From the IMG/VR virus record IMGVR_UViG_3300041809_000571, positions 115,841 through 179,840 of that record: 64,000 bases of DNA; one strand, given 5' to 3'. The notes beneath the pieces are model-generated. The model did not search any database and had not been told where the DNA came from. It was given only the letters and a program-made list of their open reading frames with translations. A program made the position numbers and the translations under genes. Position 1 is the stretch's first letter; every line of letters begins with the position of its first letter. Source of the stretch: a virus. Positions 39,390 through 64,000 of the stretch are shown one piece after another.

Positions 39390-39413
39390 GAAAAACTACC
39401 CACTTTTTCTTAC
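39386..39413. terminator. Bidirectional hairpin between convergent genes
   Basis: GTAAGAAAAA ctacccac TTTTTCTTAC perfect 10-bp inverted repeat spanning both stop codons. Confidence 0.45.
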
Positions 39414-42400: not shown

Positions 42401-44110
42401 ACGAGGACAGAAGCCGCCCCACTCCGAGGCGGTCTTAGCAGTCTTAGCGGTCATCAAGGGTTGGATTACATCCTTACCCCAGTACCGATAATCAGCATCC
42501 ACAGTGGGAGACACAAGGGCAAAATAGGTCACCGCTCCTTGGTCCACGACGTAGGGGATGTATCCACTGGCGGCTGCTCCTAACCGTGCCATGCGTGCAT
42601 ACAGGGCGGCTCTCCCAGCGCCCTCCGCCGAAAAGTACATCGCCGGGGGGCGGAGATTGCGCAGGGCACTCATGACCAGACCGCCTACCTTGGTGAACAC
42701 CTCGGCGACGTGTCCGGTATTGGTAGTCCCGTAGGCACCCAGCAGGTTGGCATCGGCATTCAGGAAGAGGAAACTGACCGCCCGGTTACCAAAGGTAGGA
42801 AGCCCCGGCTCGGCATCCGTCCAACTCTGCATGACAGCGGTGTAGGGGATGTATCCCTTCTGTGTCTCGGGGGCCTTGATGTAAAATTGGGAAATCCAGC
42901 GGTCCCCGCTGGCATACCGCCAGTCTTCCCAATCGGCTGGCTCCGGGGCCTTGCGGTCAGCGGTCTTCTGGAAAAGCCCGGCGTTCTGGTCGATGAACTG
43001 CACGGCAAGAGCCGTATCATTTAGGTCTTGCGTGCTCATCGCTTGCAGTTGTTCGGGAGTAACCTCGTACACCGAGATTTTGGTTTCGGGTTTGCCGGGA
43101 TACTGCCGTCGTGCCGTTTCTGCTTTAACAAGAGCGTTGAAATCGTGAGGTCCCTTGGAGTCAATGGCAAGCTCTCCCTTGCGACAGAAAGCATGAACCA
43201 CTGTCTTCTGTTCCCCGGATTCCTCCACGATTGCCCATATCGGCCAGCCAAACTTCTGATGCAAGGCATTGGCAAAGACAGTACAGTAGCCTCCTTGCCA
43301 GCGTTCGCCCGCTGCCGTCTTAGGTTGAGCGAAAGTTACGTCACTGTCATAGACACTATAGTCCATGCCGCTCCTGCTCCACTTCACCGTCAGGAACCGT
43401 TCATTGCCGCCGTGATATTTCTGACGAACATCCTCGCCCGCATCATTAGTCTCCATGATTTCCCGGACGCCCAAGAGAGTACCCTTCTCTCCTGTGGACT
43501 TACGGATGACCGTGCAACCGATTTCACCCGGCTTGGCAAGAGCGTTATCTACCCGGTAAATATGAGAGGGGTCAAAGACTACTATCTGCGGTCCTATATC
43601 TAAAGTTTTCCATCCCCCTCCCTTATGATAGACGGCGTCGAACTTAGACTTAAGAGTCTCAGTCATCTGCTGAGTGGCTTTTACTCTACTCCATGTGGAG
43701 GTATCGGGGTCATAACCATTTTTTAACCACCACTTCATCATTGTATGAGGGGTATTGAAATTTATAGATTCAAGCCGTGGGACATCTAAGTAATAGACCT
43801 TAAGCCCTTTCAGGCTATTACCATTAAACTTTTTTCCAACTGACTGGGAAGGCGTCATATATACACCAAAACCTAAAAAGTGAATTGGTGGAGGAAGTCC
43901 CATAGCATATTCCCGATTTTCCTCAAACCCATGAGAAACCGGACCCTGACCAGCCTCGCCCTCGAATACCTTAAACCCCTCTTGGTCAATTAACTCTCGT
44001 GCTTCCGATGTAGTTCCATGGTATACTGGACCAAACAAATGCCGGTCTAACGCCTCTTGGAGAGAGATTGTCTGTGCTTTCGGAAATGCAGTTTTAGATA
44101 CATTCGTCAT
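39410..44110 (-). CDS. Giant polyvalent protein (1566 aa) with three H-Y-E type ADP-ribosyltransferase-like modules and a Cys-cluster C-terminal domain
   Basis: ART signatures VYHGTTS, ILYHGTAEDF ... AWFSTS ... FRILEYQV (PARP/diphtheria-toxin-like His, Tyr/Ser and Glu positions) and PLYHGTSAY; C-terminal CPFSTPECRHHC cluster; recurrent PDRGPEFDRIPRG module. Confidence 0.8.
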   Translation of the reverse strand: MTNVSKTAFPKAQTISLQEALDRHLFGPVYHGTTSEARELIDQEGFKVFEGEAGQGPVSHGFEENREYAMGLPPPIHFLGFGVYMTPSQSVGKKFNGNSLKGLKVYYLDVPRLESINFNTPHTMMKWWLKNGYDPDTSTWSRVKATQQMTETLKSKFDAVYHKGGGWKTLDIGPQIVVFDPSHIYRVDNALAKPGEIGCTVIRKSTGEKGTLLGVREIMETNDAGEDVRQKYHGGNERFLTVKWSRSGMDYSVYDSDVTFAQPKTAAGERWQGGYCTVFANALHQKFGWPIWAIVEESGEQKTVVHAFCRKGELAIDSKGPHDFNALVKAETARRQYPGKPETKISVYEVTPEQLQAMSTQDLNDTALAVQFIDQNAGLFQKTADRKAPEPADWEDWRYASGDRWISQFYIKAPETQKGYIPYTAVMQSWTDAEPGLPTFGNRAVSFLFLNADANLLGAYGTTNTGHVAEVFTKVGGLVMSALRNLRPPAMYFSAEGAGRAALYARMARLGAAASGYIPYVVDQGAVTYFALVSPTVDADYRYWGKDVIQPLMTAKTAKTASEWGGFCPRCGSDQTAWAMHSPTTDTYFCLDCKGSTDIERDMHPSLRAAMKIAGLVGYPWAIWEGKALLSPRGMAHTDWFARMGIPDRGPEFDRIPRGNFYIDNDKEQIYVWTDAEDYDYSKNPEESLDDTVVFGPWGGRRFDLKFTPPEVIEAIKRKYPHSETYEVVDWMPPGSVHKWSSGEWWRRWRKTYLIPKGTILYHGTAEDFPAMDIQTPAWFSTSRSVAENFQGWHGGEEGNFRILEYQVTKPIRLPRIDGGDDLERLEDMFGLRSQYGTEEILDSLPESGLPGWIIPHNYPDGDDILLADDYSITPINEPEEEEVVSQEGLPPGAWREADLPGYWTREGTTTIYHMTPEEIAEREQRLQKRSAKEPVEVEEATWSRPLYHGTSAYRAKKIKTQKSFYGETEGYNEMGVGVYTHPSMNRTSPWAAGRAQGAFMELHFTRPLKLAVKNPQGEWVSSMGGESHRFISKAPTQRELIDAGYDGIYDKHGTTQVPHQVLLFNQPVLGAGGAHKLNQLIDWDKVRIINFNESQHGYLKGLENTEEAPYYRGASKTAGKFVWPPYEEWIDGFHPYLENEAAEQGEENLAESEELRDIYDGFVQTFSSWRFPITIWRAVKLGSIEDLDTTKLGVAWTFRENMAVPYAGMGGEEFILRAKVPASSIDWDMTMELNLYGGEDEVRLIEGAPVMLEGYTIKDKWSGAKDQWFPLKKRLTAADDRPMPKEFVTTKNLKTQKPYQPALVNTENRKMMKGIPKGYLTGVMHLMPADKSGYGNVCPFSTPECRHHCLNTAGEWVNSPKIQGSRIYKTKLYFTDRPTFLKELRKSIEKIVRKAKKMDLLPAIRINGTSDLPNLGVMMAKEYPMVQFYDYTKVPKPWEKIRENYDIVFSRSETNEKEVQEALKHGVSVAVVFDLKPKQPLPAQYYGRPVIDGDLHDLRFLDKLEGEPPFVVGLRAKGKGRGKGTETGFVLKVEPLPEVKKASARELPHIEWFEDEMFSGPPREE

Positions 44111-44973
44111 ACCGTTTCCTTAATAGCACAACGATACCCACTCCAATCGTTATACCGCCCATGAGCTACATACAAAAGCATATGATAGTTAACCCCGGAG
44201 TTCCTACACCACGCCTTAAGATTTCTTATCTCAAGGGTTTCTCCTGCGGGAGTGGAAACAGCATATACCCGTTTGGTTGGGTGACCATACCTCCTGAAGT
44301 TTTCTAGCCTCTTTTGATTAGCTATCCTAATGCTTTCGGGACTTAATTGTTTTGGCTTACCCATCAATGCGCTAGAGATTAAATTTCTATGATTCTCTGA
44401 AAAAACACCCCGCTTTCTTCCCGCATTCTTTTTGGAAATCAAAGCCTTTGTCTCTTTAGAGTGTTGTTTTCCGTAAAAGGAGTTGTTAACCCCGGTGGTA
44501 TCTCTATGGATTTCATGCATAAGTTTTTTGGTTTCCTCGGAGTGGTTTTTACCGAAAAACGGATTGTTCTTTCCACTGCGAGCTTCCCCCGTTATCTTGC
44601 TCCGTTGCTCTGTATCCCATACATACCCAGAAATACCCTCTCCCCCTTCGGTAACATTTGTCAGAGGCCCCTCTCCAAGATTAAAACGCCCAATTAGACA
44701 AATGATTTTCTTCTCAAGAGTAAATGCTCTTTCCTCAGACAAAGTATCCTTTATTATGACTACGGTTGGAGATTTTCCGATGTCTAATAACTTTTGTATT
44801 ATCCTATCTTTATGCGGATTGTGGTGCTTTCCTATGTAACAGGAATGACGCCACGCCCGCCTCCCTTTTCCCTTTCCCACGTAAAATGGCTGATAAGAAA
44901 GTAGTATTTCCCCATACACATACTTTCCCGGCTTCCTTGGGTCGCACAATATGTAAACATAAAATCCACTCAT
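44107..44973 (-). CDS. GIY-YIG homing endonuclease with NUMOD3 repeats
   Basis: GFYVYIL ... FYVGKGKG ... R ... H ... E ... N GIY-YIG core; three NUMOD3-like repeats (GKNNPFFGKNHSEETKK, GVNNSFYGKQHSKETK, GVFSENHRNLIS). Confidence 0.8.
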   Translation of the reverse strand: MSGFYVYILCDPRKPGKYVYGEILLSYQPFYVGKGKGRRAWRHSCYIGKHHNPHKDRIIQKLLDIGKSPTVVIIKDTLSEERAFTLEKKIICLIGRFNLGEGPLTNVTEGGEGISGYVWDTEQRSKITGEARSGKNNPFFGKNHSEETKKLMHEIHRDTTGVNNSFYGKQHSKETKALISKKNAGRKRGVFSENHRNLISSALMGKPKQLSPESIRIANQKRLENFRRYGHPTKRVYAVSTPAGETLEIRNLKAWCRNSGVNYHMLLYVAHGRYNDWSGYRCAIKETV

Positions 44974-45001
44974 ACTTATGAACCCAATAGTCGGTATATA
45001 C

Positions 45002-46651
45002 TTAACTACCAGAATTTACAAGCAGCCACTCCGCTAACTCAGGGGGAATCTTATGATTTGTTATTGAAGCTGTTTTCTGGCTGGCGGTTACTCCCGTATC
45101 TCCCTTGGCAACCTTGATGTATTTCGGAGGGACAGCGCCGTACAGGATGACAGTGTTGGGGGACATCCCCTGTTCATAGTCGTAATGGTAGTCGTCATCT
45201 CCCAGAGCGTGGGCGAGATACTCCCGTGCCTCTCCCTCGGCGATGTCGGATTCCCTTCCAGCAAAAGGTAAGCTGCTGGGAGGAAGCTCCCGTTTCATAG
45301 CCTCAGTGTCGATTTCCAACACAGTGTCGTAATAGTAGCTGGACTCATCCCAATCGGTGCTGGTGAAGACCGCCGCTCCCGTGCTTCGGTTGCTCAATCC
45401 CCGAGTCTCGTTCATGGAGAGCAACCCCTGTTGCAGGATGGTCTCCACCTTGTTCTCATCCGTCCCATGATACAAGGTGGAAGGGTAGGCCCAAAATTCC
45501 TTGTTAAATTTTTCTTCCGAATCAGGCAGGAACTTCTCGGCATTGTAATCGAAGAGGAGGTCTCGAACGTCAGACCACATGGTGAAGGTTCCGTCATCAT
45601 CCACGGCGACCACCGCACCGCCCACCTCATAAAGCCTGCCACCATTGTAGGCGAGCGCCATCTCCGCTCCATGCTGAGCGAGGATGGCTTCCACTTTTGG
45701 CAAGTCACCCTCCACCTCATAGAGGGCGTTTTCCAAAGTGTTGTATCCTGCGTATCCCCGCTTGCTGACAAAGAATGCTTTCTTGAGGGCGGCGGTGAAC
45801 TCTGCCTTCTGTGGGTCGTATTGTTGTGCAAATGCTGACTTAATTTGGTTAGGCTCGAAGGCTATCCAAGCGACTCCACCTTCCACCAGATTCTTGTAAC
45901 GGATACCGTCGTGCCCTGCGGCTTGCAGCTTTGTTCTTGCTTGCATGGCGAGGTCATAGGCGGCATCTTTGAGCATCTCCTCTTCCCCCTCTTCGGGGTG
46001 CATACGCTCGAACAGCCACTCATTCTGTCCCTGCCGGAAAGTTGTATCAGTATCGTACTCTTGATACCACTCATCGGCTTTTTGTGTGGAACTTTCCTCA
46101 TCCTCGGGGCTTATGCCATCGGCTATCATGGCGGACTGCAAAAGCTCCTCTTCATACCCACCTATCTTCCCCTGATAGATGAACTGGAGCATGTTCTTTT
46201 CGCTGCCAAAGTCCTTGGGGTTGATTATGCGGAGATACACGGGAATGACACGGGGTTTTTCTTCGTCGCCCTCATACCGGGTCTGGGTCCACCCCTTGCC
46301 CATAGCGAACATATCAGCGACCTTGGGGTCTACAGCGAAGTGCGCTCCCATGAAAGCGCCGGGGTCCCAGCCGCTACCGGAGGACAGCGGCTCGCCCGTC
46401 TCCGTGGTCACAACACCGTCTGTGCTGAACTCCTCGAAGTCCACCGATGACCGGGTGCCGTGGTAGACTCGGAGCGGTCGGCCCTGCTGGTCCACCACCT
46501 TGGACCCGGCAAACCAACGCCGGAAATTAGGAGACTCCACACCGGCTCCCCTTTTAGGTGAGGCAGTTTTTCTGGGCCGAGTAATCTGGTGCGCTACCCG
46601 AGCCAACTCCTCATCCGTTACGGAGTTAGTGTCCTTTTCGAGTAAGTCCAT
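45002..46651 (-). CDS. Polyvalent-family protein (549 aa) with two ART-like modules
   Basis: RVYHGTRSS and TLYHGTDENK ... AAVFTSTDW signatures. Confidence 0.7.
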   Translation of the reverse strand: MDLLEKDTNSVTDEELARVAHQITRPRKTASPKRGAGVESPNFRRWFAGSKVVDQQGRPLRVYHGTRSSVDFEEFSTDGVVTTETGEPLSSGSGWDPGAFMGAHFAVDPKVADMFAMGKGWTQTRYEGDEEKPRVIPVYLRIINPKDFGSEKNMLQFIYQGKIGGYEEELLQSAMIADGISPEDEESSTQKADEWYQEYDTDTTFRQGQNEWLFERMHPEEGEEEMLKDAAYDLAMQARTKLQAAGHDGIRYKNLVEGGVAWIAFEPNQIKSAFAQQYDPQKAEFTAALKKAFFVSKRGYAGYNTLENALYEVEGDLPKVEAILAQHGAEMALAYNGGRLYEVGGAVVAVDDDGTFTMWSDVRDLLFDYNAEKFLPDSEEKFNKEFWAYPSTLYHGTDENKVETILQQGLLSMNETRGLSNRSTGAAVFTSTDWDESSYYYDTVLEIDTEAMKRELPPSSLPFAGRESDIAEGEAREYLAHALGDDDYHYDYEQGMSPNTVILYGAVPPKYIKVAKGDTGVTASQKTASITNHKIPPELAEWLLVNSGS

Positions 46652-49600
46652 ATTTCCTCGGGTTTTTCAAGATGTACTGTGTCACTTCTGCCACGTCTTT
46701 CTCGTTACCATACAGGGGACGCTCCCCCCCGCCGGATTCGGGCATCTCCCCCATAAACTGGTTCATGAAGTCGTCGGGTTGATAAGGACCTCCATCCAAG
46801 CTCACCTCGGGGTTCGCCGGGTCCATGTCAAAATCCTTCGCCATGACCGCTGGTGACCGCTGACCCTTGATGTCATAGGTCTTTCCGTCCAGTGCCATGC
46901 AGTAAACATGGGTCATGTTCCAGTCCACCAAATTGCCGCTATCTTCAAGCTCTGCAATCTGTTCTGGACTCATCTCCCCGATATCGTGCCACGGGTCTCC
47001 CTCGGGGTCAGACATAAAGTACACAACACCTTGATTCAATCGAGCCAAGGCCACAGCAAATATGCCACACCCCTCAGTCATGTAATAGCCGGGGTCAAAC
47101 ACACTGGAATCATCGCCGTGTCCGGGCTGGAGGAGTCCAAGACCGGGCAAAGAGGCGGTGACGGGCAGTTGCAGGGCGTGCCATTGGTCTTTCATATCCC
47201 GCCACTTATCCAGCGTCAGTTGTACTCCATCCTTGAGCCGGATTTCCTCTTCATCATTGAAACTTCCGCTCATCGACAGCGCCAAGGTAGCAAACCAATC
47301 CACATCCTCGATTCTCACCTTGGCGTGGAAGACTCGATAGTTTCTGCTGGGGCTGCCATAAGGATAGGCTCCTACGTCATGTCCCGGTGTACCGGAGGAC
47401 ATCGACCAGTAGACCCCAAAGTCCTCTTGCTTTATGCCCGACCATGGCTTATCAGCAGGAAGAGAGACGGCCCGGTATACATCCAGAGGCCACTTCTGGG
47501 AAAGGAAAAACTTGTGAGAGGCGGCGAAGCGCTTCTGGGCCTCTTCTGGGGAAATTGTTAAGTCTTCTTCCTCATTGGTATCATCCACCCCGAACTCTAT
47601 CTTCAAACGGTTGGTAAAAGTGTCAGGTCCACCAAGCTCCTCAACGAACTGCCGGAAGGTGGGGATGCCTGTAGATGCAGCGGTCTTACCCCCCATCTCG
47701 GGGGGCAATGGCTTCCCCATTCTTCTAGCTATTTCAATAACCCTGTTTACCAGATTGACACATCTCGGACTTTCAATATACCACTTGGCCCCACCCTCGA
47801 ACAAGGCGGCATAGGTGTCAGCGATGACCTCTTCGGGGCGATGCTGTCCACCAAAAAAGTTGTCGAACGTAGTACGGGCATCCATCGGTGCATTGGGGGG
47901 TTTACCATCTTCCCTGAACGGGGCGAGAACATCCCTGAAATCACGGTTGAAATTCACCATTAAATCATGTCCTATTTCATGGTTGACCACCATCCTGCGG
48001 GAGTCCTCGTTACCCTCAAAGAAGGTATCACTGACACGGGTCAGACCCGGTCCCTGCCTACGGGCATCAAACGGCCTGCCGGGGACATACTCAAAGCCTG
48101 CTGGCGGATTGGCAATGAATTCCTCCTTGGTAAGCTGCCATGGTTCCTTGATTGGCTTATCCTCCGAGTCGGAAACCTTGTAAACATCTGCTGTTTTACT
48201 AACACTTTCCGCAGGCTTGACAACGTAGTTCTCCCCATATCTTGTGTTGAACTGGGCGAGGAAATCCGGGGGAATCTCCCCATAATGAACAATCAACTCC
48301 GTGGGAAGCCGCTTGCCCTCTACTTTCTCCAAGTGATACTTCTCTCTGACTTCAATCACAGCTAAGATACGATTGGACCCCCCGTAGCCTATAGGCATCT
48401 CAATGCGGGCATTATTGAAGTTGTAAACCGCATTAGGCTCCTTGGGGTTGGCATATCGCTTGAGGGCAATAGTGACCTTGGCGACGGCATCCCGGAACAT
48501 CCGTTCTCCCTCCTCGGGGGAGGGGAATAGTTTCCTGATTTCTTCCGCAGGGGGAATACTGGACTTCCCTGATTCCTCAGCGAAAGCCCTTTGGTAAGTT
48601 CTGGAAAGCTCCCAGTCCTGTTCCTTCTTAGCATGGTGAGCGGCGGAGCGAGCAAGGGCGGCGAAGAAACACTCGGGAAGAATTTCCAACAGTCGCTTTT
48701 GAACCTCGGGGTGAAAATCCCCGTTGAATTCATCGTTGTTGGTGCCGTAATACTTGAACCGTAGTCCCCGCAGGGCCTTGTAAATATACTTCTTTCTTTC
48801 ATCATCCACGTATTCTCCCCAACCCTTCGCCCTTTCAGGATAGGTGACAGCGAGGTAAGCGGGAAGAATATAGTAGGAGTTACCCATGTCGGAGATGCTG
48901 GGAAGAGCCTGTTGTAGATAGCCCGTGACACTATCCTCATCAAGATACATGGTGTTGGGCTGCAAATCCATACAGACAACGATGACTCCGTGCTCATTCC
49001 CTCGCTGCCGGGGAGAACTCATGGCGGTGGTGAGATTTTGAGTGACGTATACGCCGCCGTAGGATTCCCGGCTAGGGGAGTAGGCACCGGCATTGGGGTC
49101 ATCTCCCCAGTTGCGCTTCTTGGGGCGGGGATTAAGTCCCTCGGTCAAAATACTGCGGAGGTTACTGGGGCTGGACCCATGGTACCAGATGGACCGCTGG
49201 GCCGCAGCCTTGCCATAGCCGTAAGGCTTGACATTCCCCAGCCACTTATCAAACTCCTCAATGTCTGAGAAGGTTAGAAGGTCGTGGTCATCATCCTCAA
49301 TTTCATATACCGGGTAAGGCTTAGTCAAGGAGGCTAAAGCGGAACGAATGAGGGTGTAAGTCCGGGGAGTTGTGTGCCGACTCTGGAAAGTCACCCCGTT
49401 ATCAGTTATGATAACCCGGATGTTCCCTCGGTGCATTGCCTGCATACATGCCCGGATAGCTTCTTGCATATTCTGAGGCTCTTCCTTGTCGCAAAGTCCA
49501 TATGCCACAGCGTTCCGAGCATGGGTACTGCCTGCATTAGGGATAACCTTTCCCTTGGAGGTTATCCAAGAGCTTTCGGTGATGGGCGGCATTGCCTTGG

Positions 49601-55600: not shown

Positions 55601-55709
55601 TACTGAGGTGACCTACAACCACTCCGGGAGCGTGGTTGTGTATCTTCTCAAGGAATCCCCGGTCAAGGTTATCCCAAACTCCCGCCGTCTTGTAGATAAG
55701 CTCTTCCAT
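46626..55709 (-). CDS. Giant polyvalent protein (3027 aa): 3 ART-like modules, minimal nucleotidyltransferase, HExxH metallopeptidase-like motif, and 3 copies of a novel repeat module
   Basis: TLYHGTASSLPVMEEGLLP, LVYHGSPDTRW, IWYHGSSPSNLRSILTEGLNP (PARP-like HGS ... ILxEGL); NTase motif LAGSAARDELKPKSDIDVVIDF; NHEIGHDL; repeats around GLPDSGKEFDRIPRG, PSWGPEFDKVPRG and AGPSYDRIERG. Confidence 0.85.
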   Translation of the reverse strand: MEELIYKTAGVWDNLDRGFLEKIHNHAPGVVVGHLSTLLKNQRLREIYEKVLETPIKTFNKPEEVELEGGSPLKWQGGYGLSHGGSMIFINPAISVTDIVRTLFEEGAHAIWAAEGRPSKPFDPAHPPTEEEYLSDPEEIFAKRMAERAFAIATGKIKTAAWAEATDFSSDPQWHDVFYQNPSPERIKALASFLRSDPNRFITLYHGTASSLPVMEEGLLPTSPGRAKSYQTSPGYVYLSVYPGNAKNFGELAYPGEDITVYAVNVTARRLLPDTDQLANQRSVGKEVGDSLAESLAIGHGARVKGAIGPMQLYKAAAKKLRLAPDIMDGTRSFLWAIVNDRVIFSLEIEPHVRWFERVGLPDSGKEFDRIPRGRVWVQPQDDEVILFTEAGRGGITGRADFTFAPEYLVEAVLQTFPQLRDFNIVDNIPSDLVVTSSVHKKGTIDPKKGTAPKRWSHPLLNGLKAEARKAPTFEDFKHDFSIDIKHGLYFHVTDNPNFTIDPAKGPRDMSSMGGGTPVPGKLMVTSHLENWTDYYENDRAYVAVIDMSEVPRESYHQVSRGFGNEFWVENPQAAKVSAVMPVKEAIKLDRTYQNVLDLHADEDLLEFYNQFHAPVEPEWKPPKEQGKLPFRGKGIAVASIMNIQSLYPPTPEWVDKAKSFLIEKWKERAKEYGRSEPNDLEGACKFSSLFTQALFGGKLRGNWEHQFVVLPDDTSLDLTGRGNTLHDAGFFGNPEHQESMESCRPRVTRWVEEFRQRYPLPIKQVASYEPYDFELLWATWHNKVLLTDDMGLWHVKWFQELNQHSQRHDPIPSWGPEFDKVPRGRAEVNKKKKRVRLYTDAAPKGSRAGESITGEADFDFTPEEVVAKIKQKYPSLRDFEFVDEVAPRLRGKWAADEFEYPQIAYHVSRRRSRNSILKNGLQMYHKQQYEDVEHEPAVYLFGSLSDAENWVGEQQSYTGQACDIWEVKVPQGEGTFWPDFEVRHEYPTAWKYLWDIPPQNLKLIKTIALPKQAAVPTGKAIDDLGISGQQGWSYDEPFPDRHNDFYEDDQVQNPHSERPLTAALSPVYTEEVKKLEYEHELVSLAEEMGNFERVVWERQPVLKTHTLDTVGLAGSANDYPHLRAVHVGDPDYWFSRLTEDYSRNSTAWVVEIYPTEDDYLCDDVQYTMDPSGGDKAYSAILITPRTQLVEGKDFRYVKELTEEDLPEVYDEDDGFGFKDAAVPKTVIMWIRYEGKIQSTVQIGNKSHAQWLEELSLPFAGPSYDRIERGVAIVDRTHRLVHLVKNAGGYTPNDVVEHIKNRYGLGEFSFIDTESFDSNMNASQKTASDDAYYDAAEAFFDRESVVAVEVITEYMQHVRQKRYRQQWNVVPAARLIKIWEDYMKTGFVRDSAGLNQIAETVIDNCLKIYVNSILCGHSAMGPEEYASEMLEREGISKKFPEDYFERAPDYFDTPEGGWRISDQAEGRLMNLVQGVYLAKSDEDKLQALDKVLQFSHPRSDLSSWLVQGGRTTLNRLFTGMNEYERWEQYGGVEEAKELNKEFNKGRNALLIPKEAWSTEPGGEPLKPETQSTIAEMVADIRKIYPECQRISLAGSAARDELKPKSDIDVVIDFPKGTPAWDMVERDQPLWDKYQQVEGRMVDFIIHVEGGPHVGQYDYREELGLPNPMKALWEATTKTAAPLTIFDHVRHPSQLPTVEEFHRVYPSKSVRYAEIRAFLNTLTEPLVIYRAVKMHNRYPYTRGFGIYWTYDETAAVPYNADYETAAGAGVWDPDEAEEYKEYNKGRKTYIFRGEVTFDAVDWGQTVWALRGQPEEKEITLHHDAPVHVTGWKRRGSSRWLKPKYEHITAARRPKYRTYVPDTRTFSEAFMKWFDGSRVVNPYGKPLLVYHGSPDTRWLKEEGVFQTPTERFLHKEDPERAFWFAADYSTASSYADPHRAWDYQGCEPGTKGFYLSIKNPYVVDKGGASWHGTDTTVAEAKAGGHDGIIIHNTVDTYQAKGRKTDTYAVFSPNQIKAADNTICDPVSPNVNASLEKEASKAMPPITESSWITSKGKVIPNAGSTHARNAVAYGLCDKEEPQNMQEAIRACMQAMHRGNIRVIITDNGVTFQSRHTTPRTYTLIRSALASLTKPYPVYEIEDDDHDLLTFSDIEEFDKWLGNVKPYGYGKAAAQRSIWYHGSSPSNLRSILTEGLNPRPKKRNWGDDPNAGAYSPSRESYGGVYVTQNLTTAMSSPRQRGNEHGVIVVCMDLQPNTMYLDEDSVTGYLQQALPSISDMGNSYYILPAYLAVTYPERAKGWGEYVDDERKKYIYKALRGLRFKYYGTNNDEFNGDFHPEVQKRLLEILPECFFAALARSAAHHAKKEQDWELSRTYQRAFAEESGKSSIPPAEEIRKLFPSPEEGERMFRDAVAKVTIALKRYANPKEPNAVYNFNNARIEMPIGYGGSNRILAVIEVREKYHLEKVEGKRLPTELIVHYGEIPPDFLAQFNTRYGENYVVKPAESVSKTADVYKVSDSEDKPIKEPWQLTKEEFIANPPAGFEYVPGRPFDARRQGPGLTRVSDTFFEGNEDSRRMVVNHEIGHDLMVNFNRDFRDVLAPFREDGKPPNAPMDARTTFDNFFGGQHRPEEVIADTYAALFEGGAKWYIESPRCVNLVNRVIEIARRMGKPLPPEMGGKTAASTGIPTFRQFVEELGGPDTFTNRLKIEFGVDDTNEEEDLTISPEEAQKRFAASHKFFLSQKWPLDVYRAVSLPADKPWSGIKQEDFGVYWSMSSGTPGHDVGAYPYGSPSRNYRVFHAKVRIEDVDWFATLALSMSGSFNDEEEIRLKDGVQLTLDKWRDMKDQWHALQLPVTASLPGLGLLQPGHGDDSSVFDPGYYMTEGCGIFAVALARLNQGVVYFMSDPEGDPWHDIGEMSPEQIAELEDSGNLVDWNMTHVYCMALDGKTYDIKGQRSPAVMAKDFDMDPANPEVSLDGGPYQPDDFMNQFMGEMPESGGGERPLYGNEKDVAEVTQYILKNPRKYGLTRKGH

Positions 55710-55724
55710 CTATAGAAGAATCAG

Positions 55725-58700
55725 TTAGAGGGTTTCTAGCCAATCTGCGGCATCCTGCGTGGAAGTGAAGCTTTTAGACCAGTTTGGATGGTCATGCGGA
55801 CCCATCTCCAAGGTCACTTCTCCCTGAAATGGCATCATCAGAAGAGCCTCGGTGATGAGTCGGCGGCTCTTGGTGACATTTCGTGCCTGAATGGAAAACT
55901 GACCGGCATCCCGGTCAACCCGGAGGTGCCCGTTCTCCATGGCAAGGTTCTCGGCATACCCGAGGTAATCCTCCCCTCCCTGCTCCTCTACCTCCCAATC
56001 ATCCATACCGCAAAGGTTCTCCGCCATCGCCCACTCCCCGTGAAGTTCGTAAGGGTGAGTCATGGGAAGGGGTCGCCCGTCCCGAGATATCCAGCCGCCG
56101 TTTTGAGAGAGCTTGGACCAATCGCCGGAACGTTCAGGCCACGGGCCGGATGGTTGCAGAAGAGGGTTTACCCTGCGCCGGGCAGCTTTCACCCGGAAGC
56201 CCCCCTTTATCTTGCCGCCGTAAACCTGCTCTTCTTCATTGACGTGAGGGGTCTTGTACAAGGACGAGTCGTAACCTCTCGGATTCATCTCCAAGAGCAT
56301 GTTTTCCATAATCCCGGCACCCTCATCATTCGCCGAATGCACAAACCACCGCTGGGGAATGAGGTTGTTAGCCTTGAGCCACTTGATACAATCCACCCCG
56401 GTCTTCTCCTGATATCGTTCGTAAGGTGGTGTACCTGACTTGTACCGTTCTTCCTCCTCGGCGTAAGTGGGGTAATGCTCCAGAGCCAAATCGTGGTCAA
56501 AGGAGATGGCCTCGGGCATGGGATGCGTTGTCATGTACTGGACAAACTCCTCATAGTTCCTGACCCAATCGACATCGGAAGCAGTGGGTCGGCGCATGTC
56601 GTCAACATAAAGGAGCCTAGCGGGTTGCTCCTCCGCCTTCTTCCTCACTTTCTTAGTTGGGTTGACATAGATTTTTAGCAGATTGGGGAAGGTATAGGGG
56701 GCCATGCACTGCCACGCTTCCTCGGGGGTAAGAGGGTAGACTTCCATGAAATCCAGACCCATCTGGAGGCGTTTCTTTGCCCGGTGATTACCGTCAATGA
56801 GGATGTAGTGCTTCTGTGGCTCGGGATGATTTTTATCTGGCTTATAAACGAGTGGAGCCACGATACCGGGCTTCTCGATATCAACCTCGTTCATGTGTTC
56901 CTTGTTCAGGCCCACGTTCATGAGGTTGATTCTGCCCTCTTCCTCCGCTTTGTCATCCTCCACCGTGCCGACAAAAGCCTCAAGGAATGCCTTGGGGGCC
57001 TTCTGTGCGGGCCGGGGATTGGCGGCGATAAACTCTTCTGCTTTGTCAACAGCAAACTGCAATCCCCAGTAGGAGAAGCGCTCATCCTGCCAAGCCTTCT
57101 TAACAGTGGGCTGTGGACCCGTCAGCGGCTTGTACATGATGTACTCGCTGTCTACATAAGGCTCGAACCCTAACTTACCATAGAAGTCATAGAGGGTTTC
57201 TATCTCTGTTACTTCATCTAAGGGAGAGGCGTGCAGGTAGCTGTCTTGTGCTCCTGCCCGGCGTGCCGCCTGTAAAACCGTATCCACGAGAGCGGTGCCC
57301 AGTCCTGTGCGCCGGGCGGCAGGGTTGACTTCCACAGCGAGTAGGAGGAAGGTACGGTAGTTCTCGTTGCCTTCGACCTTATCCGATTCGTCGTAGTCGG
57401 TAGAGAATCCATTTTCATCCAACCAATCTTCCAGTCCCTCAAGGTTGGTGATTTCCCCACGGGCATAGCCAAGGCGGTGTTTGGCTTCAAGCTGGGTTCC
57501 CCTCTTGATAACCCGGATACCACTTCCCGCCGATACCTTCTCTATGGGGGCTTCGGTAACGGACGCCTCACGGGAGATGAATGCAACCTTATCCCGGTCG
57601 GCAACCATCCAGTCCTCTTCTCCGGGAAGCTTGTAGCCTTGCAGTCTACGCCAGATGTTGGGAACCCGCTTCTTGTTGTACCTATCCGGGAGATAGCTCT
57701 TGATTCCTTTCCACCTCGGACTCATGAATTGCATCAAGGCGAAGTACATCGCCTTGCCCAGTCCGTATCCCCGGTGCCGTGGTTTCACTTCCACCAGACC
57801 TATTCCGAGGTAATCGTTCAGGGGTCCACTGTCGCTCTGCCGTTTGGTAGATAGTTTGCCAACACATTTGTTGTCCTCCGTCCATGCCGTGATGTATTCG
57901 GCGTCTTCGGGGTCATCCACGACGATGCGATAGCTTCCTACGTGGGCTACTACGTTCTTGTCTTCCCACTGTTCTACGGAGGCAATCTTCCTTGGCTCCG
58001 GTAGCACTGTGATATTTTTAGGAGGAACAAAGCGAGTTGAATAGGAAGGAACGCCGGTTTCCCCTACCCCCAAGGGGTCCTTCGCCAAGCGTAATCCCTC
58101 AGTCTTAATGCGGAGGGTAACTAGCTCGTCATCCTTACCCCGGATGAACTCAGCGAGGAGATTTTTCCAGTAATCCACCCCCTCAATCGCCGTCAAGAAT
58201 ACCAACCCACGACTCTCCTCGAAGGGGAAGTTTGGCTCCTTTTGCGGAACCAACCCCTCTTGAAGTATCTTGGGGACCCGGCTCTTAAAAGTCACATGAT
58301 AGAGAATCTCGGGAATCTCAGCAGCGGTCTTGGGAACAACCGCCGAGCCGGTACCTTTCCGTTGATACTCCGGGTCGTTCAGGTTGGTGATTACCACTCG
58401 CCAGTCATCCTCTTCTCCGGGGTGGAATTGGTCGCAGGTGATGTCAATAATCTTATCCTGCGTCTCTACCCACCAGTGTAGTCCATGCCTGCCCACCTGC
58501 AAGTGCTCACCCTTTTCCGGCCCCTCTCCATAATACCCACCCGCCCGGTGAGCGTCGGGGAATCCGTGCTCTCGCAGGAACTTCGCCAACAGGTCCGCCA
58601 GACAGAGGCACTGCTCACGGAAACAGGACTTGTCCTCTAACCACTCATACCAATCCTCTTGCTCCTCCCGGAATTGCCACACGAGTTTGGCGAGCGTATC

Positions 58701-60035
58701 CTCCTCGGCGGCTCTCCTTCGCCGGATAACCTTAATCTGCTTATTGATGGCCGCTTTGATATTTTCCGGGAGAGGATAGTTGCAGCCAATTGACCCATCA
58801 TCCTCCACCCAGAAGATGGCGATATCTCCGCTCGTCTTTCCATGGGAATCTCCCCATGGGGTGTCGCCCCAACCAATGGCGGGTCCACCGCCCTGCGGAC
58901 CTTCGGGGGCACGGGGGTCGGTTTTGGTCCAATCGTATTCACTCTGCTCCCTCTCCAGAATCGGCTGGCTGAATATGTGGCTGTGGTGCCATCCACCCGC
59001 CTTACACTCCTGATAGTTGTGGGCTTCTTCAATGTGCCCATCCAGCAAAGACACCGCTCCCAAGGAGAACGGCTTGCCATTCCAACGAGCGTTGTCTCTT
59101 GTGAGAGCGGCGGTCTTGGGTCTTGGGATAAGCTCAATGTGCTTTACCCCGTTCTCCTCCACCACCCGGTAATCCTTAGCCAGCCGTGCCCACACATTCT
59201 TGGCATCCCGAGACTGAGTGAAACCTTCCCTGAATATTTTGTAGCCTTTCTTTCTTGCCTCTTCAATAGCCATGCGGTAGAGAGTCAAGCCGATGCCGTG
59301 GTATTTAAGGTCGGTGCTGACCCATACGTTCATCACCCGAACGGTTCCCTTCTCCTGTGTATACTCGTAGTGCTCCTCGTTGTTCTTCGTGTACGAGTTT
59401 ATGGCGGCGACGGTGATACCCCCGACTTGGTATCCGTCTAGGTAGGCGTTGACCGCAAAGGTGGGATAGGGTCCCGGTTCCTTGGTTATCTTATAAGTTA
59501 CACCTTCGGGGGTGGGGAACTTAGAGGCAAGCTTCCCCTGTTTTGGGGGGTCGGGACGGCAGAATCCCTTTTGGCTAGTCAATAACTCGTCCTCCATGGC
59601 GGTATACTCAAACCCGTCGCTGAACTTAATCTTATAGGCTCTTGGTGACCCTTCTTCAAGACGTTGGACGGGGGTCATACCACTTAACTCCTTCAGCCAT
59701 CCATCTGCCTCTGCCTTTCCTAGCACCGTGACCTTCTGATGTGAGTGATACCACAGCTTGGCATCGGCGGACTCGGGACTCTCCCAACACATATACTCGA
59801 ACCACGCCTGCTCACCGGGCTTCCATTCATTCTTCCAGTAAAGGCGGCTAGTAGCAGGGGACTTGGAGGCGAACTTCCCCTCGTCCTTATCGTCTTGACC
59901 GTTTCCAGTAGTCAGGACCAGACAACATGCACCTTTTTCATCCCTTACAATGCGACATTTGTCGTCTGAGTAAAGGATGGTTTCGTCTTCATCCTTGCTG
60001 TTGACGGGAACTTTGTTCACTGTGTTTTCAGGCAT
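55725..60035 (-). CDS. Giant polyvalent protein (1436 aa): 3 GNAT acetyltransferase modules, a degenerate ART-like module, and a ParB-like nuclease domain
   Basis: GNAT motif A (YHGIGLTLYRMAIEEARKKG, HRGYGLGKAMYFAL, RRTGLGTALVDTVLQAARRAG); ILYHVTFKSRVPKILQEGLVP; ParB-type YILIDGNHRAKKRL near the N-terminus. Confidence 0.8.
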   Translation of the reverse strand: MPENTVNKVPVNSKDEDETILYSDDKCRIVRDEKGACCLVLTTGNGQDDKDEGKFASKSPATSRLYWKNEWKPGEQAWFEYMCWESPESADAKLWYHSHQKVTVLGKAEADGWLKELSGMTPVQRLEEGSPRAYKIKFSDGFEYTAMEDELLTSQKGFCRPDPPKQGKLASKFPTPEGVTYKITKEPGPYPTFAVNAYLDGYQVGGITVAAINSYTKNNEEHYEYTQEKGTVRVMNVWVSTDLKYHGIGLTLYRMAIEEARKKGYKIFREGFTQSRDAKNVWARLAKDYRVVEENGVKHIELIPRPKTAALTRDNARWNGKPFSLGAVSLLDGHIEEAHNYQECKAGGWHHSHIFSQPILEREQSEYDWTKTDPRAPEGPQGGGPAIGWGDTPWGDSHGKTSGDIAIFWVEDDGSIGCNYPLPENIKAAINKQIKVIRRRRAAEEDTLAKLVWQFREEQEDWYEWLEDKSCFREQCLCLADLLAKFLREHGFPDAHRAGGYYGEGPEKGEHLQVGRHGLHWWVETQDKIIDITCDQFHPGEEDDWRVVITNLNDPEYQRKGTGSAVVPKTAAEIPEILYHVTFKSRVPKILQEGLVPQKEPNFPFEESRGLVFLTAIEGVDYWKNLLAEFIRGKDDELVTLRIKTEGLRLAKDPLGVGETGVPSYSTRFVPPKNITVLPEPRKIASVEQWEDKNVVAHVGSYRIVVDDPEDAEYITAWTEDNKCVGKLSTKRQSDSGPLNDYLGIGLVEVKPRHRGYGLGKAMYFALMQFMSPRWKGIKSYLPDRYNKKRVPNIWRRLQGYKLPGEEDWMVADRDKVAFISREASVTEAPIEKVSAGSGIRVIKRGTQLEAKHRLGYARGEITNLEGLEDWLDENGFSTDYDESDKVEGNENYRTFLLLAVEVNPAARRTGLGTALVDTVLQAARRAGAQDSYLHASPLDEVTEIETLYDFYGKLGFEPYVDSEYIMYKPLTGPQPTVKKAWQDERFSYWGLQFAVDKAEEFIAANPRPAQKAPKAFLEAFVGTVEDDKAEEEGRINLMNVGLNKEHMNEVDIEKPGIVAPLVYKPDKNHPEPQKHYILIDGNHRAKKRLQMGLDFMEVYPLTPEEAWQCMAPYTFPNLLKIYVNPTKKVRKKAEEQPARLLYVDDMRRPTASDVDWVRNYEEFVQYMTTHPMPEAISFDHDLALEHYPTYAEEEERYKSGTPPYERYQEKTGVDCIKWLKANNLIPQRWFVHSANDEGAGIMENMLLEMNPRGYDSSLYKTPHVNEEEQVYGGKIKGGFRVKAARRRVNPLLQPSGPWPERSGDWSKLSQNGGWISRDGRPLPMTHPYELHGEWAMAENLCGMDDWEVEEQGGEDYLGYAENLAMENGHLRVDRDAGQFSIQARNVTKSRRLITEALLMMPFQGEVTLEMGPHDHPNWSKSFTSTQDAADWLETL

Positions 60036-60699
60036 AAGCCTTGGTTTCCTTCTCCCACATTTTCAGATATTCAACCGCCCTTTGCACAATGCCGATATCA
60101 TCCTTTAGCAAGCCTATTCCACGATTGCAGCCTCCGCAGAGCATCCCACGAGGAGAATCCGTTATGTGGTTGTGGTCAAGGTCCGTTGCCGGTGCCTGTC
60201 GGCATATGGCACAAAGCCCTGCTTGGACAGTAAGCCGTTCTTGGATGTAGGACTCGTCAACACCGTATATATAGCGGCGATGTGCCGCTTGGACCTTTCT
60301 TGGGTTGTTTTTTCTCCATTCGGCATGCTGCTTTCGCCTCTTTTCCAGACTACGATGCTCTAGCTGCTGGCTGTAGCAAGCCTTACATAACCCAAATGCT
60401 TCATGGGGACGGTCTGGGTGGCACCCCGCCTTTCTCCCCTTGAAGTTCCCCTTGTGCATAGAATCAACGATAAACTGCTTGTTTTTCTTTCGGCACTCCT
60501 CCTTGAAACAGGTCGTAAGGTCCTTTGCATAGTATCTGGGAACCTTGAATTCCTCATTGCAAAACCGACAAATCCTCCTTATCGAATGCTTCTCTCTTGT
60601 TGCCTCGCCATAGCATTTCCGGCTACAAAAATTTTTCTCTTTGATGCTCGCAGGGCACCTGTCAAACTCTTTTTTGCACCATCCACATTCCACCAACAT
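60028..60699 (-). CDS. HNH homing endonuclease (endonuclease VII-type HNH) with N-terminal Cys-rich zinc-finger repeats
   Basis: GLCAICRQAPATDLDHNHITDSPRGMLCGGCNRGIG. Confidence 0.75.
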   Translation of the reverse strand: MLVECGWCKKEFDRCPASIKEKNFCSRKCYGEATREKHSIRRICRFCNEEFKVPRYYAKDLTTCFKEECRKKNKQFIVDSMHKGNFKGRKAGCHPDRPHEAFGLCKACYSQQLEHRSLEKRRKQHAEWRKNNPRKVQAAHRRYIYGVDESYIQERLTVQAGLCAICRQAPATDLDHNHITDSPRGMLCGGCNRGIGLLKDDIGIVQRAVEYLKMWEKETKAYA

Positions 60700-60729
60700 A
60701 AAGCACCTCCTATATGAAGGAGGTAAAAG

Positions 60730-63700: not shown

Positions 63701-64000
63701 TCTTCCATGGATTCCTTAACCTTGCCTGTTTCGATAGCCTTGCGCTTGTCCAACCGCCATGCTCTGGTGGGCCAGACTACTCCCTGATGAGCAGCGTGCG
63801 CCCCGTGTTCAAGGAGCCACTGAGTAAGCCTTGGAGTAACATACTTCTGGAGTTTCTTGCCTATGACGGTAAGTTCCCCGAAGTCGTTATAGTAATCCAG
63901 TTTCTTCCGCTGTGTGGGAGTAAGTTGGTGAATAAGGCCCCATACATCGTGAATTATCTCCTCGGGTACTCCCGGCTGATTGATGGGTTGGTCGTCAAAC
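60730..64000 (-). CDS. Polyvalent protein with 3 ART-like modules and a C-terminal HAD-like domain; N-terminus lies beyond the window end
   Basis: RLYHVTTAAD, PVYHGSTHQFEVFNP and KVYHGTSSNFQRF; C-terminal IGVDLDGTLA HAD motif I; the reading frame continues without a stop from the TTG at 63753 up to position 64000. Confidence 0.75.
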   Translation of the reverse strand, partial: FDDQPINQPGVPEEIIHDVWGLIHQLTPTQRKKLDYYNDFGELTVIGKKLQKYVTPRLTQWLLEHGAHAAHQGVVWPTRAWRLDKRKAIETGKVKESMEEVPLPQRESLSVTAAADDAYLQNERDYSGVWNEQETQEEGHKRWQRRKEWQTSLLTALSLGKISPEEADQRDLSPGCIGGSCSKAFKPLPARLYHVTTAADAVFYGGIKTREELNQGYGHGLGGGTEKSISFTTDLRIAEDIYHAILIAIRVASGRFTPQEMLETARKGEGAQREWLSDIKRYYGTQSNMVVDEDGLPSVLSAVVRGVTTKHSMDIPERSSAMGMTAEEAKTLGYVPAKGAHGWQGRDAQYYSYFERPATPEEKREDAFQLFKTWAFFREQAGGRMDPLFFMSDTAALAQTDEEQVAVLEFKPIPGAMGTQESALGEWRTYTGRAVQLVGQVAVQKSVTAGVSVNDLTYLHPKQEMTNTPAFKAWFRNSVVKEPDGSPKPVYHGSTHQFEVFNPSRSDVENYYGQGIYFTDSEGDVTRNYATPTGPDITNRIERRTDELINDLYSEMGEDFPGYNTTEYQDLRADANERAIKEIVGPDEEGIVYATYLRIERPVVVTRKGGTEFYINYNEATGRESGSGMRLYNAVLKVAEKQGVDGQDVWSKVTANGELYSDFTAYEFEQAFRNSDNLPEDVYINAGDFISQVYRTMGFDGIIQMEPDKQFPNMGIYPGTHHYIIWNPRQAKSAIKNVGTFNPRSPRMTAAEQLKLDLPPRRPFDITQEPGFRRWFDGSEIVGKDGKPLKVYHGTSSNFQRFRQDKGFRGGLIFFTTNPDFASMYSGVMKWEEEKGTPVMDGGQATIGANIMPCYLKIKKLFDYRQNDAQYLAEEYFNSGEMDQFDESRACADYYGVMEEELTDRQKVKYDADAFVSQVAKGSWVALELPSFLFFIKKAGYDGVALVELNALNFGVFNANQIKSALSNTGEFNPRKTDITAAKEWGEWIGVDLDGTLAKETEEFDPLKIGEPVPAMVEKIKAAIEDGVEVKIFTARLADEKLKDKIKLLVRVWTLEHIGVPLEATNEKDPGTVEIWDSNSDMGHNPLKP

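Follow-up and report, generated by a model that had tools for sequence, protein, structure and literature searches.

Predicted free-standing homing endonuclease genes at two junctions of a polyvalent-effector gene array in a large phage-like genome

The 64,000-nucleotide (nt) stretch analysed here, positions 115,841 to 179,840 of IMG/VR record IMGVR_UViG_3300041809_000571 (the window), contains two small endonuclease genes, one of the GIY-YIG/NUMOD3 and one of the endonuclease VII-type HNH class, lying between genes for large multidomain polyvalent proteins. According to the open reading frame (ORF) listing, all large ORFs between positions 39410 and 64000 are on the minus strand. In the order of transcription they are the genes for a 1261-amino-acid (aa) protein, the HNH endonuclease, 1436-, 3027- and 549-aa proteins, the GIY-YIG endonuclease and a 1566-aa protein (Table 1). 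The window is an identical stretch of ENA contig ERZ27249816:k141_1180871 (364,142 bp), on which a further polyvalent gene, of 2028 aa, precedes the 1261-aa gene outside the window. Both junction arrangements were found at 100% identity in independent assemblies (Logan SRR6181340, ERZ27249851 and ERZ27250145), and a 100% identical copy (P0001) belongs to a 317-kb JGI contig which could not be located. ORFs and domain matches confirmed the two endonuclease genes at the positions reported in a preliminary description of the window, co-directional with the polyvalent genes on either side. The same description gave the upstream neighbour of the HNH gene as a 1007-aa protein, which corresponds to an ORF with a TTG start listed at 60730-63753. 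No in-frame stop was found up to 63999; the gene is cut by the window end, and the real product has 1261 aa.

Both junction regions were compared by megablast with 50,697 phage records without a match, and the genome has no close relative in culture. Three protein queries against IMG/VR, namely the end of the 1261-aa protein, the first 200 aa of the 1566-aa protein and the HNH protein, gave no match either, and one metagenome scan returned only the sister contig described below, which had already been found.

The genes flanking the endonuclease genes encode several unrelated effector or enzymatic domains per polypeptide, ART-PolyVal being among them except in the 1436-aa protein. In the Pfam search ART-PolyVal was matched by the 549-aa (3e-18) and 1261-aa (2.7e-34) proteins and also by the 3027-aa protein; the match of the 1566-aa protein was marginal (30.6 bits, just below the cut-off of 31.2), and the 1436-aa protein, which has GNAT and cREC_REC domains, gave no ART match. 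The earlier statement that all the flanking proteins share an ART module thus stands for the 549- and 1261-aa proteins, marginally for the 1566-aa protein, and fails for the 1436-aa protein. The 1566-aa protein opens with a segment referred to here as domain X and ends with GP88 (Pfam, 4.5e-35). The part of the genome that was examined showed neither a MuF nor a portal domain.

The product of the GIY-YIG gene matched NUMOD3 in two stretches (Pfam, 1.2e-19), the LEM-3-like GIY-YIG family (2.1e-7; 31.5 bits against a Pfam cut-off of 27) and phrog_314, 'homing endonuclease'. Its catalytic positions Y5/Y7, Y31-V32-G33, R39, E87 and N106 were invariant across 11 orthologues of 39-68% identity. The HNH product matched Endonuclease_7 (1.8e-15, profile positions 4-81 of 82) and endonuclease VII PHROGs, and its core motifs were read directly as 'CAICRQ...DLDHNH...LCGGCNRG', corresponding to zinc-binding Cys pairs and D-H-x-H ... 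C-x-x-C-N. Its best phage matches, of 25-41% identity, are named 'endonuclease VII'. The three extra CxxC repeats at the N-terminus of this protein, together with the lower guanine-plus-cytosine (GC) content and the polymorphism of its gene, argue for a mobile gene, the other candidate functions being those of a phage Holliday-junction resolvase or a packaging HNH protein.

The stop codon of the GIY-YIG gene overlaps the start of the 1566-aa gene (ATGA), and that of the HNH gene overlaps the start of the 1436-aa gene by 8 nt. The few-nucleotide overlaps with both neighbours described earlier are therefore present on the downstream side and absent on the upstream side, where spacers of 28 and 30 nt were found. 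The two endonuclease sites are the only marked low-GC islands of the 64-kb window. The GIY-YIG island (GC 0.43 vs. 0.54) is broader than the gene itself (GC 0.423; GC at third codon positions, GC3, 0.415), taking in the last 33 codons of the 549-aa gene as well as the first ~185-190 of the 1566-aa gene; GC3 is ~0.41 within it and 0.60 beyond aa ~185 of the 1566-aa product. At the HNH site the island is less pronounced (GC 0.48); it begins at the end of the 1261-aa gene and stops near codon 45 of the 1436-aa gene.

A HAD-like module ('GVDLDGT ... FTAR ... EIWD') closes the 1261-aa protein. An uninterrupted ORF runs through the site in five lineages (L013, t420/P0028; L014-17, o1073/P0029; P0030; P0033; P0037), the continuous alleles reading '...TNEKDPGxxE(I/L)WDD(K/R)A(R/K)RV.K(D/N)EG.FA...', and in L013 and L014 the chain continues into a homologue of aa 50-195 of the 1436-aa protein. 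After 'EIWD' the window has the 12-aa tail SNSDMGHNPLKP, a stop codon, the spacer, the HNH gene and a new start with a 49-aa leader; BLAST-level homology of the 1436-aa protein with the continuous ORFs begins at aa ~50, with a weak match from aa ~24 (DDKCRIVRDEKG). The same cut was observed in L027, in which '...EVWDRNPALGYSPA' and a stop codon precede a NUMOD3/zinc-finger HNH-like gene, and in L025/L026 (342-kb contig), in which '...EIWDRNQALGHCPI' and a stop codon are followed by a 56-nt spacer and a GNAT gene ('MRSLL...SSWDDRANRVVKDKGTFAS') with no endonuclease. The HAD site was thus found in three states: continuous (five lineages), split with an HNH-type gene (window and L027) and split with no endonuclease (L025/L026).

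Because the five lineages are continuous through the middle of the HAD motif, the split is taken as the derived state, and because the split alleles share a homologous tail, a single cassette-derived origin of their stop codon is indicated. L025 keeps both split and tail with no endonuclease, so the cut can outlive the endonuclease. Comparison of the alleles points to the arrival of the HNH cassette as the event that cut a formerly continuous gene into the 1261-aa and 1436-aa genes. Identity to L013 falls from 54/55 to 20/35 residues at a recombination break ~105 bp upstream of the HNH cassette, and a break at this place fits expectation, because a cassette arriving with some donor flank would give one. 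A long diverged duplication flanking the HNH gene is a possibility, the alignment being weak (shuffle p 0.004-0.02).

In the L013 contig (ERZ25039529 contig_111473) the homology to the window proteins switches frames, and the true C-terminus, STQDAADWLESL followed by a stop codon, lies outside the frame of the called gene; the contig carries indel errors, and its many small 'genes' are artefacts. The apparent fusion of its 1436- and 3027-aa homologues (t141) was rejected as a frameshift artefact of assembly, and the gene boundaries of L013 were set aside because of these errors.

A sister genome, IMGVR_UViG_3300018019_000005, of which an identical copy was found in sample 3300037843, has an array collinear with that of the window at 85-94% nt identity (about 88%) and differs from it by 15 module-level indels. 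Neither window endonuclease gene is present in the sister genome. Its array has four other endonuclease-type genes at other sites, all of GC 0.41-0.45 (e283, e204, e262 and e235; Table 1). An ATGA overlap joins the stop codon of e262 to the start of the downstream piece, whose first ~53 codons are divergent. Since the sister lacks the window pair and has four such genes elsewhere, endonuclease cassettes are evidently frequent and variable residents of these arrays. The sister array is not the sole home of GIY-YIG-like genes, because further ones lie outside it.

At the GIY-YIG site a 1572-bp segment of the window (43540-45111, one repeat copy counted) is missing from the sister. This segment comprises a 33-aa tail, the spacer, the GIY-YIG gene and the first 190 aa of the ART-like domain X. 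Two copies of the 8-bp direct repeat TTGCCAAG stand in the window 1572 bp apart and in phase, and the sister has a single copy at the fusion point of one fused 1345-aa ORF ('...PPKYIKVAK/PGEIGCTVIRK...', the slash marking the junction). The left end of the indel is the natural end of the Tpt1/PARP-like domain of the 549-aa protein ('VPPKYI') and the start of the low-GC tract. The 549-aa tail has a linker-like start resembling the linker 5' of domain X in the homologue P0067.

Residues 1 to ~265 of the 1566-aa protein are a single conserved unit, in which a core (aa ~10-190) and an SH3-like tail are joined by 'LAKPGEIG'. Domain X has 159 homologues, most of them aligned over at least aa ~10-200 and the best continuously over ~10-265; all 11 aligned homologues are uninterrupted across aa 190, and the distant matches reach only ~aa 200. 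An AlphaFold2 (AF2) model of the core (pLDDT 73) gave weak matches to the PARP catalytic-domain fold (E 1e-2, TM 0.3), and an ART-like fold is probable. Between the window and L018 the core is 73% and the tail 50% identical, the corresponding values for control pairs being 69/76 and 79/81. Three boundaries therefore meet at aa ~190: the end point of the indel, the shift in GC3 and the drop in relatedness to L018.

The fused sister ORF is not simply an ancestral larger gene, because the first 190 aa of domain X are missing from it and only an orphan tail is left; the reading of the 1345-aa ORF as a simple ancestral gene was dropped once domain X proved continuous across the junction in the aligned homologues. 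The C-terminal domain of the 549-aa protein was also compared with the domain X core as a possible diverged duplicate of it, and the two showed no significant similarity. All the boundaries would be explained by one event linking the two alleles: either the cassette entered a sister-like allele by recombination at LAKPGEIG, or precisely this step was reversed. Such a single event is favoured because an independent deletion would need coincidences at several boundaries. That a fused state preceded the present split at this site is somewhat better supported than its opposite.

The GIY-YIG gene is missing from the sister, and its orthologues occupy a conserved site in three further lineages. In L018 an orthologue of 66% identity lies directly 5' of a gene opening with domain X (72%), and in L022-24 one of 53% identity lies directly 5' of the domain X gene (50-54%). 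In both cases the orthologues are downstream of large polyvalent genes, and the C-terminal modules of those partners differ. The P0221 orthologues (L019-21) have another genomic context. The linkage of the GIY-YIG gene with domain X is old.

Table 1. Features of the two endonuclease junctions and of the surrounding array in the window, and endonuclease-type genes of the sister array.
Feature	Position	Strand	Basis or remark
Free-standing GIY-YIG/NUMOD3 endonuclease gene, 288 aa	44107..44973	-	ORF, Pfam, PHROG, orthologues
Spacer, 28 nt, 549-aa stop to GIY-YIG start	44974..45001	-	Junction reading
1566-aa polyvalent gene, downstream of GIY-YIG gene	39410..44110	-	ORF; same gene call in source contig
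Domain X core, aa 1-190, low GC3	43541..44110	-	Missing in sister; probable ART-like fold
SH3-like tail of domain X, aa 191-265, 'LAKPGEIG...'	43316..43540	-	Resident type, 92% aa identity with sister
Right 8-bp direct repeat copy, TTGCCAAG	43532..43539	-	Codons L-A-K of domain X, 1566-aa protein
Left 8-bp direct repeat copy, TTGCCAAG	45104..45111	-	Codons V-A-K, end of Tpt1/PARP-like domain, 549-aa protein
Putative cassette-borne C-terminal tail of 549-aa protein, GDTGVTASQKTASITNHKIPPELAEWLLVNSGS, and stop	45002..45103	-	Missing in sister
549-aa polyvalent gene, ART-PolyVal and Tpt1/PARP-like domain, upstream of GIY-YIG gene	45002..46651	-	ORF, domain matches
3027-aa polyvalent gene, neither boundary with an endonuclease in the window	46626..55709	-	ORF
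1436-aa polyvalent gene, GNAT domains and cREC_REC, downstream of HNH gene	55725..60035	-	ORF, Pfam
Leader of 1436-aa protein, aa 1-49, low GC3, putatively cassette-derived	59889..60035	-	Comparison with continuous ORFs
Free-standing Endo VII-type HNH gene, 223 aa, N-terminal CxxC repeats	60028..60699	-	ORF, Pfam, PHROG
Spacer, 30 nt, with ribosome-binding site TAGGAGGTG, upstream of HNH gene	60700..60729	-	Junction reading
Putative cassette-borne tail of 1261-aa protein, SNSDMGHNPLKP, and stop	60730..60768	-	Homologous to L025 'RNQALGHCPI' and L027 'RNPALGYSPA' tails
Last 35 HAD-module codons before the tail	60769..60873	-	L013 identity falls from 54/55 to 20/35
1261-aa polyvalent gene, 3' part, running off the window end	60730..64000	-	Three ART-PolyVal stretches, C-terminal HAD-like module
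e283, GIY-YIG	sister		5' of first array gene
e204, Endo VII type	sister		Splits 2028-aa homologue, continuous in window genome
e262, HNH	sister		Splits 1436-aa homologue inside cREC_REC module, intact in window
e235, GIY-YIG	sister		Intergenic gap between 1436- and 3027-aa homologues, 23 nt in window

Both genes are best explained as free-standing homing endonuclease cassettes, co-directional with their surroundings and lodged in one long polyvalent-effector operon of a phage-like genome of ~364 kb; from the sequence evidence we assign this explanation a probability of about 0.75. The two junctions have a common anatomy, consisting of a new C-terminal tail with its stop codon, a spacer of 28-30 nt, the endonuclease ORF and a start codon overlapping the endonuclease stop, and the first 23-190 codons of the downstream piece are cassette-like in composition. 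The proposal in the preliminary description that the array derives from fewer, larger genes partitioned by endonuclease genes finds partial support. It is upheld at the HNH site by the five continuous lineages and is limited by the fact that most gene boundaries have no link to an endonuclease; at the GIY-YIG site it has the fused 1345-aa sister ORF in its favour and the lack of the first 190 aa of domain X in that fusion against it. Fused ORFs in relatives, proposed there as a check, were found at both sites, in five lineages and in the sister, respectively. The alternative it offered, that the endonuclease genes mark recombination hotspots, agrees with the sharp breaks in composition and relatedness by which both cassettes are bounded.

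By analogy with the seg and mob genes of T4, the endonucleases would cleave endonuclease-free alleles near the insertion point in a mixed infection, and repair off the endonuclease-bearing genome would copy the cassette together with adjacent module sequence. The donor-type downstream flank would shield the carrier from self-cleavage, and the overlapping stop and start codons would couple translation of the downstream piece to that of the endonuclease. The modules strung together in a polyvalent protein would act autonomously, so that cutting at or close to the edge of one should cost little, and reassembly of the two pieces into one protein is probably not required here. Gain and loss of cassettes would toggle fission and fusion and exchange effector modules; loss of the endonuclease ORF may leave the split behind, as in L025, or may take the flanks along and re-fuse the genes in frame, as in the sister.

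Several observations weigh against this explanation. In the window genome the boundaries between the 2028- and 1261-aa, the 1436- and 3027-aa and the 3027- and 549-aa genes have no endonuclease. The latter two are kept in the sister, the 1436/3027 boundary recurs in L013, and L014 retains the boundary at the N-terminus of the 3027-type module. The endonuclease-free arrays of L014 and the distant L011 consist of four to five abutting genes, and L025 shows the split of the window's HAD site with no endonuclease. The majority of the 15 module indels between window and sister are not adjacent to an endonuclease, and two of the four sister endonuclease genes are intergenic, e235 at a pre-existing boundary and e283 before the first array gene. 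The endonuclease gene of L027 is cut by the contig end, so that its NUMOD3 and zinc-finger part alone is visible, and L013, with its frameshift errors, was trusted for the absence of the HNH gene and for in-frame continuity only. The sister fusion truncates a domain that is uninterrupted in homologues and may be a secondary deletion. Finally, domain X is internal in ~17 of the 150 homologues listed and at or near the N-terminus in the others; because it is mostly N-terminal, the gene boundary 5' of it may predate the endonuclease.

The strongest competing account concerns the GIY-YIG site, where two genes and the endonuclease may be ancestral and the sister fusion the product of a microhomology-mediated deletion between the TTGCCAAG copies, removing the endonuclease, the tail and the catalytic core of domain X. 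Two repeat copies in the long allele against one in the short are the classic signature of such a deletion. The orphan SH3-like tail in the fusion agrees with it, since this tail follows the domain X core in 11 aligned homologues, and so does the 549-aa protein, which has a natural domain end, 'VPPKYI', and then a linker, as in P0002. Against this, both end points match the limits of the low-GC3 tract, and the right one also matches the drop in relatedness to L018; an independent deletion is unlikely to strike both limits, and one insertion or its exact reversal fits all three boundaries. The deletion is accordingly regarded as a serious but less probable history of this site.

The endonuclease genes might also be passengers in pre-existing intergenic gaps, the partition of the array being older and independent of them. 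In favour of this are the three boundaries of the window genome listed above that are free of endonuclease, the 1436/3027 boundary common to window, sister and L013 with an endonuclease (e235) there in the sister only, the multi-gene arrays of L014 and L011, the mostly N-terminal position of domain X in its proteins and the endonuclease-free HAD-site split of L025. Passengers in gaps would not account for the five lineages continuous through a mid-HAD motif at the HNH site, nor for the homologous non-HAD tail of all the split alleles, which suggests one cassette-derived stop codon, and e262 interrupts a cREC_REC domain which is unbroken in the window. This account is considered improbable.

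It is still more unlikely that the nucleases are functional members of the effector array, injected or directed against host defences, and not selfish elements. Nuclease modules are common in polyvalent proteins (PMC5512222), the off-window 2028-aa protein has a module that looks GIY-YIG-superfamily-like by eye, and the two genes are co-oriented and translationally linked with the array. However, their presence or absence differs between genomes of ~88% identity, each relative having other endonucleases at other sites, and their GC content is low relative to the array. They have the typical homing architecture, in which NUMOD3 or zinc-finger DNA-binding parts accompany a small nuclease core, and they are separate small ORFs with spacers of their own, the HNH spacer with its own ribosome-binding site.

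No match to a group I or group II intron was obtained in Rfam at E<=10 on either strand of 59300-61300 and 43000-45600, and an intein reading was rejected on the stop codons, spacers and frame changes at both junctions, there being no Hint match. That the inserts are self-splicing introns or inteins whose flanks still make one protein can be practically dismissed, for even if one source labels the GIY-YIG protein 'group I intron endonuclease' and joining 'EIWD' to 'DKCRIVRDEKG' by a hypothetical splice would restore the uninterrupted sequence of the relatives, neither site gave an Rfam intron match, the HNH insert has only ~130 nt besides its endonuclease ORF, seemingly too little for a group I intron core, the GIY-YIG segment includes a conserved protein domain, and inteins are ruled out by the stop codons and frame changes. 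As a separate observation, the gene at 9550-10509 of L018, adjoining a ClpB-like AAA+ gene, has a Hom_end_hint (intein) match; the AAA+ gene of the window (30020-31039, 339 aa) has none.

Beyond the reading of both genes as homing endonuclease cassettes, a wider proposal may be made: the GIY-YIG gene and the domain X core could form a self-mobilising effector cassette, homing spreading the endonuclease along with a ready-made effector domain directed against the host among co-infecting giant phages, with the arrays serving as safe landing pads and endonuclease gain and loss acting as a main engine of their combinatorial diversity through fission, in-frame re-fusion and module replacement. This extension is doubtful and is put forward tentatively.

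Several further features of the arrays were recorded. The motif 'TATAGG(A/G)GG' stands just 5' of the start in four or five of the six endonuclease genes (window 60706-60714; sister L010 around 8975, 13805 and 4755) and could be a cassette-borne promoter or ribosome-binding element. It has 3 copies in the whole window against ~1 expected, a number reached in 8/100 shuffles, and 'TATAGGRGG' was rejected as a phage-wide promoter motif, its 3 window copies being no enrichment. In the sister the 3027-aa homologue is divided between two genes (474 and 1561 aa), the 9-nt gap between them being free of any endonuclease, and at L010 15869-16422 the sister has a 554-bp replacement with a divergent copy of the aa 646-777 module. 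L025 has an HNH-type gene of its own at another site, between two polyvalent genes (4818-5600; phrog_374, 2e-21; GC 0.50 vs. 0.57). A 'VYLLHFLGGG...HYCGW...' module, by eye GIY-YIG-superfamily-like, is internal in the off-window 2028-aa protein (L003 5797-6127) and opens separate genes in the sister (L010 9653-9983, after e204) and in L014 (1869-2270, no endonuclease). The linkers between polyvalent modules (39410-64000, e.g., 45002-45103 and 44060-44110; also P0067 and P0002) contain a recurring '(S)KTAA / KTAS / ITAA' motif, present in more than 12 copies in P0067 and twice around the GIY-YIG gene, which it flanks; this motif may be a maturation-protease site.

Elsewhere in the window, two collagen-repeat proteins, both probably fibre proteins, are encoded at 22868-27466 (1532 aa) and 32132-33670 (512 aa, with a lectin-like Laminin_G_3 domain), and a CCA-adding/poly(A) polymerase gene lies at 35433-36797. 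A 327-aa ORF on the plus strand (18701-19684) combines an N-terminal HNH motif (PF01844, 3.7e-6) with an RNA ligase domain (PF09414, 1.9e-31), an unusual architecture.

Polyvalent proteins are regarded as the first-strike toolkit with which a phage meets host defences, and even close relatives differ in the domains that these proteins contain. The locus offers a testable mechanism for part of this diversity, in which cassettes cut at module edges, drag neighbouring sequence along and can leave either a persistent split or an in-frame re-fusion, and the natural series of alleles at the HNH site makes cleavage and repair experiments easy to design. For annotation it follows that neither the number of genes nor the length of the proteins is a stable character in such arrays.

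Free-standing homing endonuclease genes that split other genes are known in phages: mobE, mobA and a seg gene split nrdA of Aeromonas phage Aeh1, T4 gene 39/60 and gene 43 of phage 25, and flanking sequence is co-converted in homing (Edgell, Gibb and Belfort 2010, PMC2988022). As in these genes in pieces, exemplified by mobE in nrdA, a co-oriented HNH or GIY-YIG gene here separates two pieces of an ORF which relatives have in one stretch, each piece is retained as an ORF, no intron or intein is present, and composition and relatedness shift in the flanks as in co-conversion. In contrast, the hosts are here non-essential modular effector genes and not essential enzymes, and an allelic series is available that includes a split with no endonuclease (L025) and an in-frame re-fused or unsplit allele (sister). 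The intronless homing of the T4 seg and mob genes (PMC2988022) likewise involves small GIY-YIG/NUMOD3 and HNH genes that are polymorphic for presence or absence among related phages, expressed within the surrounding operon and accompanied by donor-type sequence. Unlike those genes, the GIY-YIG gene described here is tied to one effector-domain gene across lineages (50-73% protein identity) and has a varying upstream neighbour.

Nuclease genes also mark the boundaries of exchange in the 'HEG islands' (homing endonuclease gene islands) of ICP1 and other phages (Barth, Dunham and Seed 2023, PMC10448857). In both systems endonuclease genes stand at breakpoints of relatedness and the neighbouring sequence appears to travel along; the tracts are short here (~0.1-0.6 kb) and lie inside multi-domain effector genes, whereas the islands exceed 10 kb and involve essential genes. 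The diversity of the polyvalent proteins of phages and conjugative elements has been attributed to domain accretion (Iyer, Burroughs, Anand, de Souza and Aravind 2017, PMC5512222). The array agrees with that account in its giant strings of ART-PolyVal, GNAT, nucleotidyltransferase, Tpt1/PARP-like, cREC and GP88 domains, whose architecture varies among relatives, and departs from it in the endonuclease-linked fission, fusion and module exchange, which are not described there, the word 'homing' having 0 occurrences in that paper. The process as such, in which free-standing homing endonucleases split genes and mark the boundaries of exchange, is known, and the polyvalent effector arrays of a large uncultured phage are a new setting for it. 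The endonucleases themselves are ordinary; the allelic series and the linkage of an endonuclease with an effector domain are the interesting parts.

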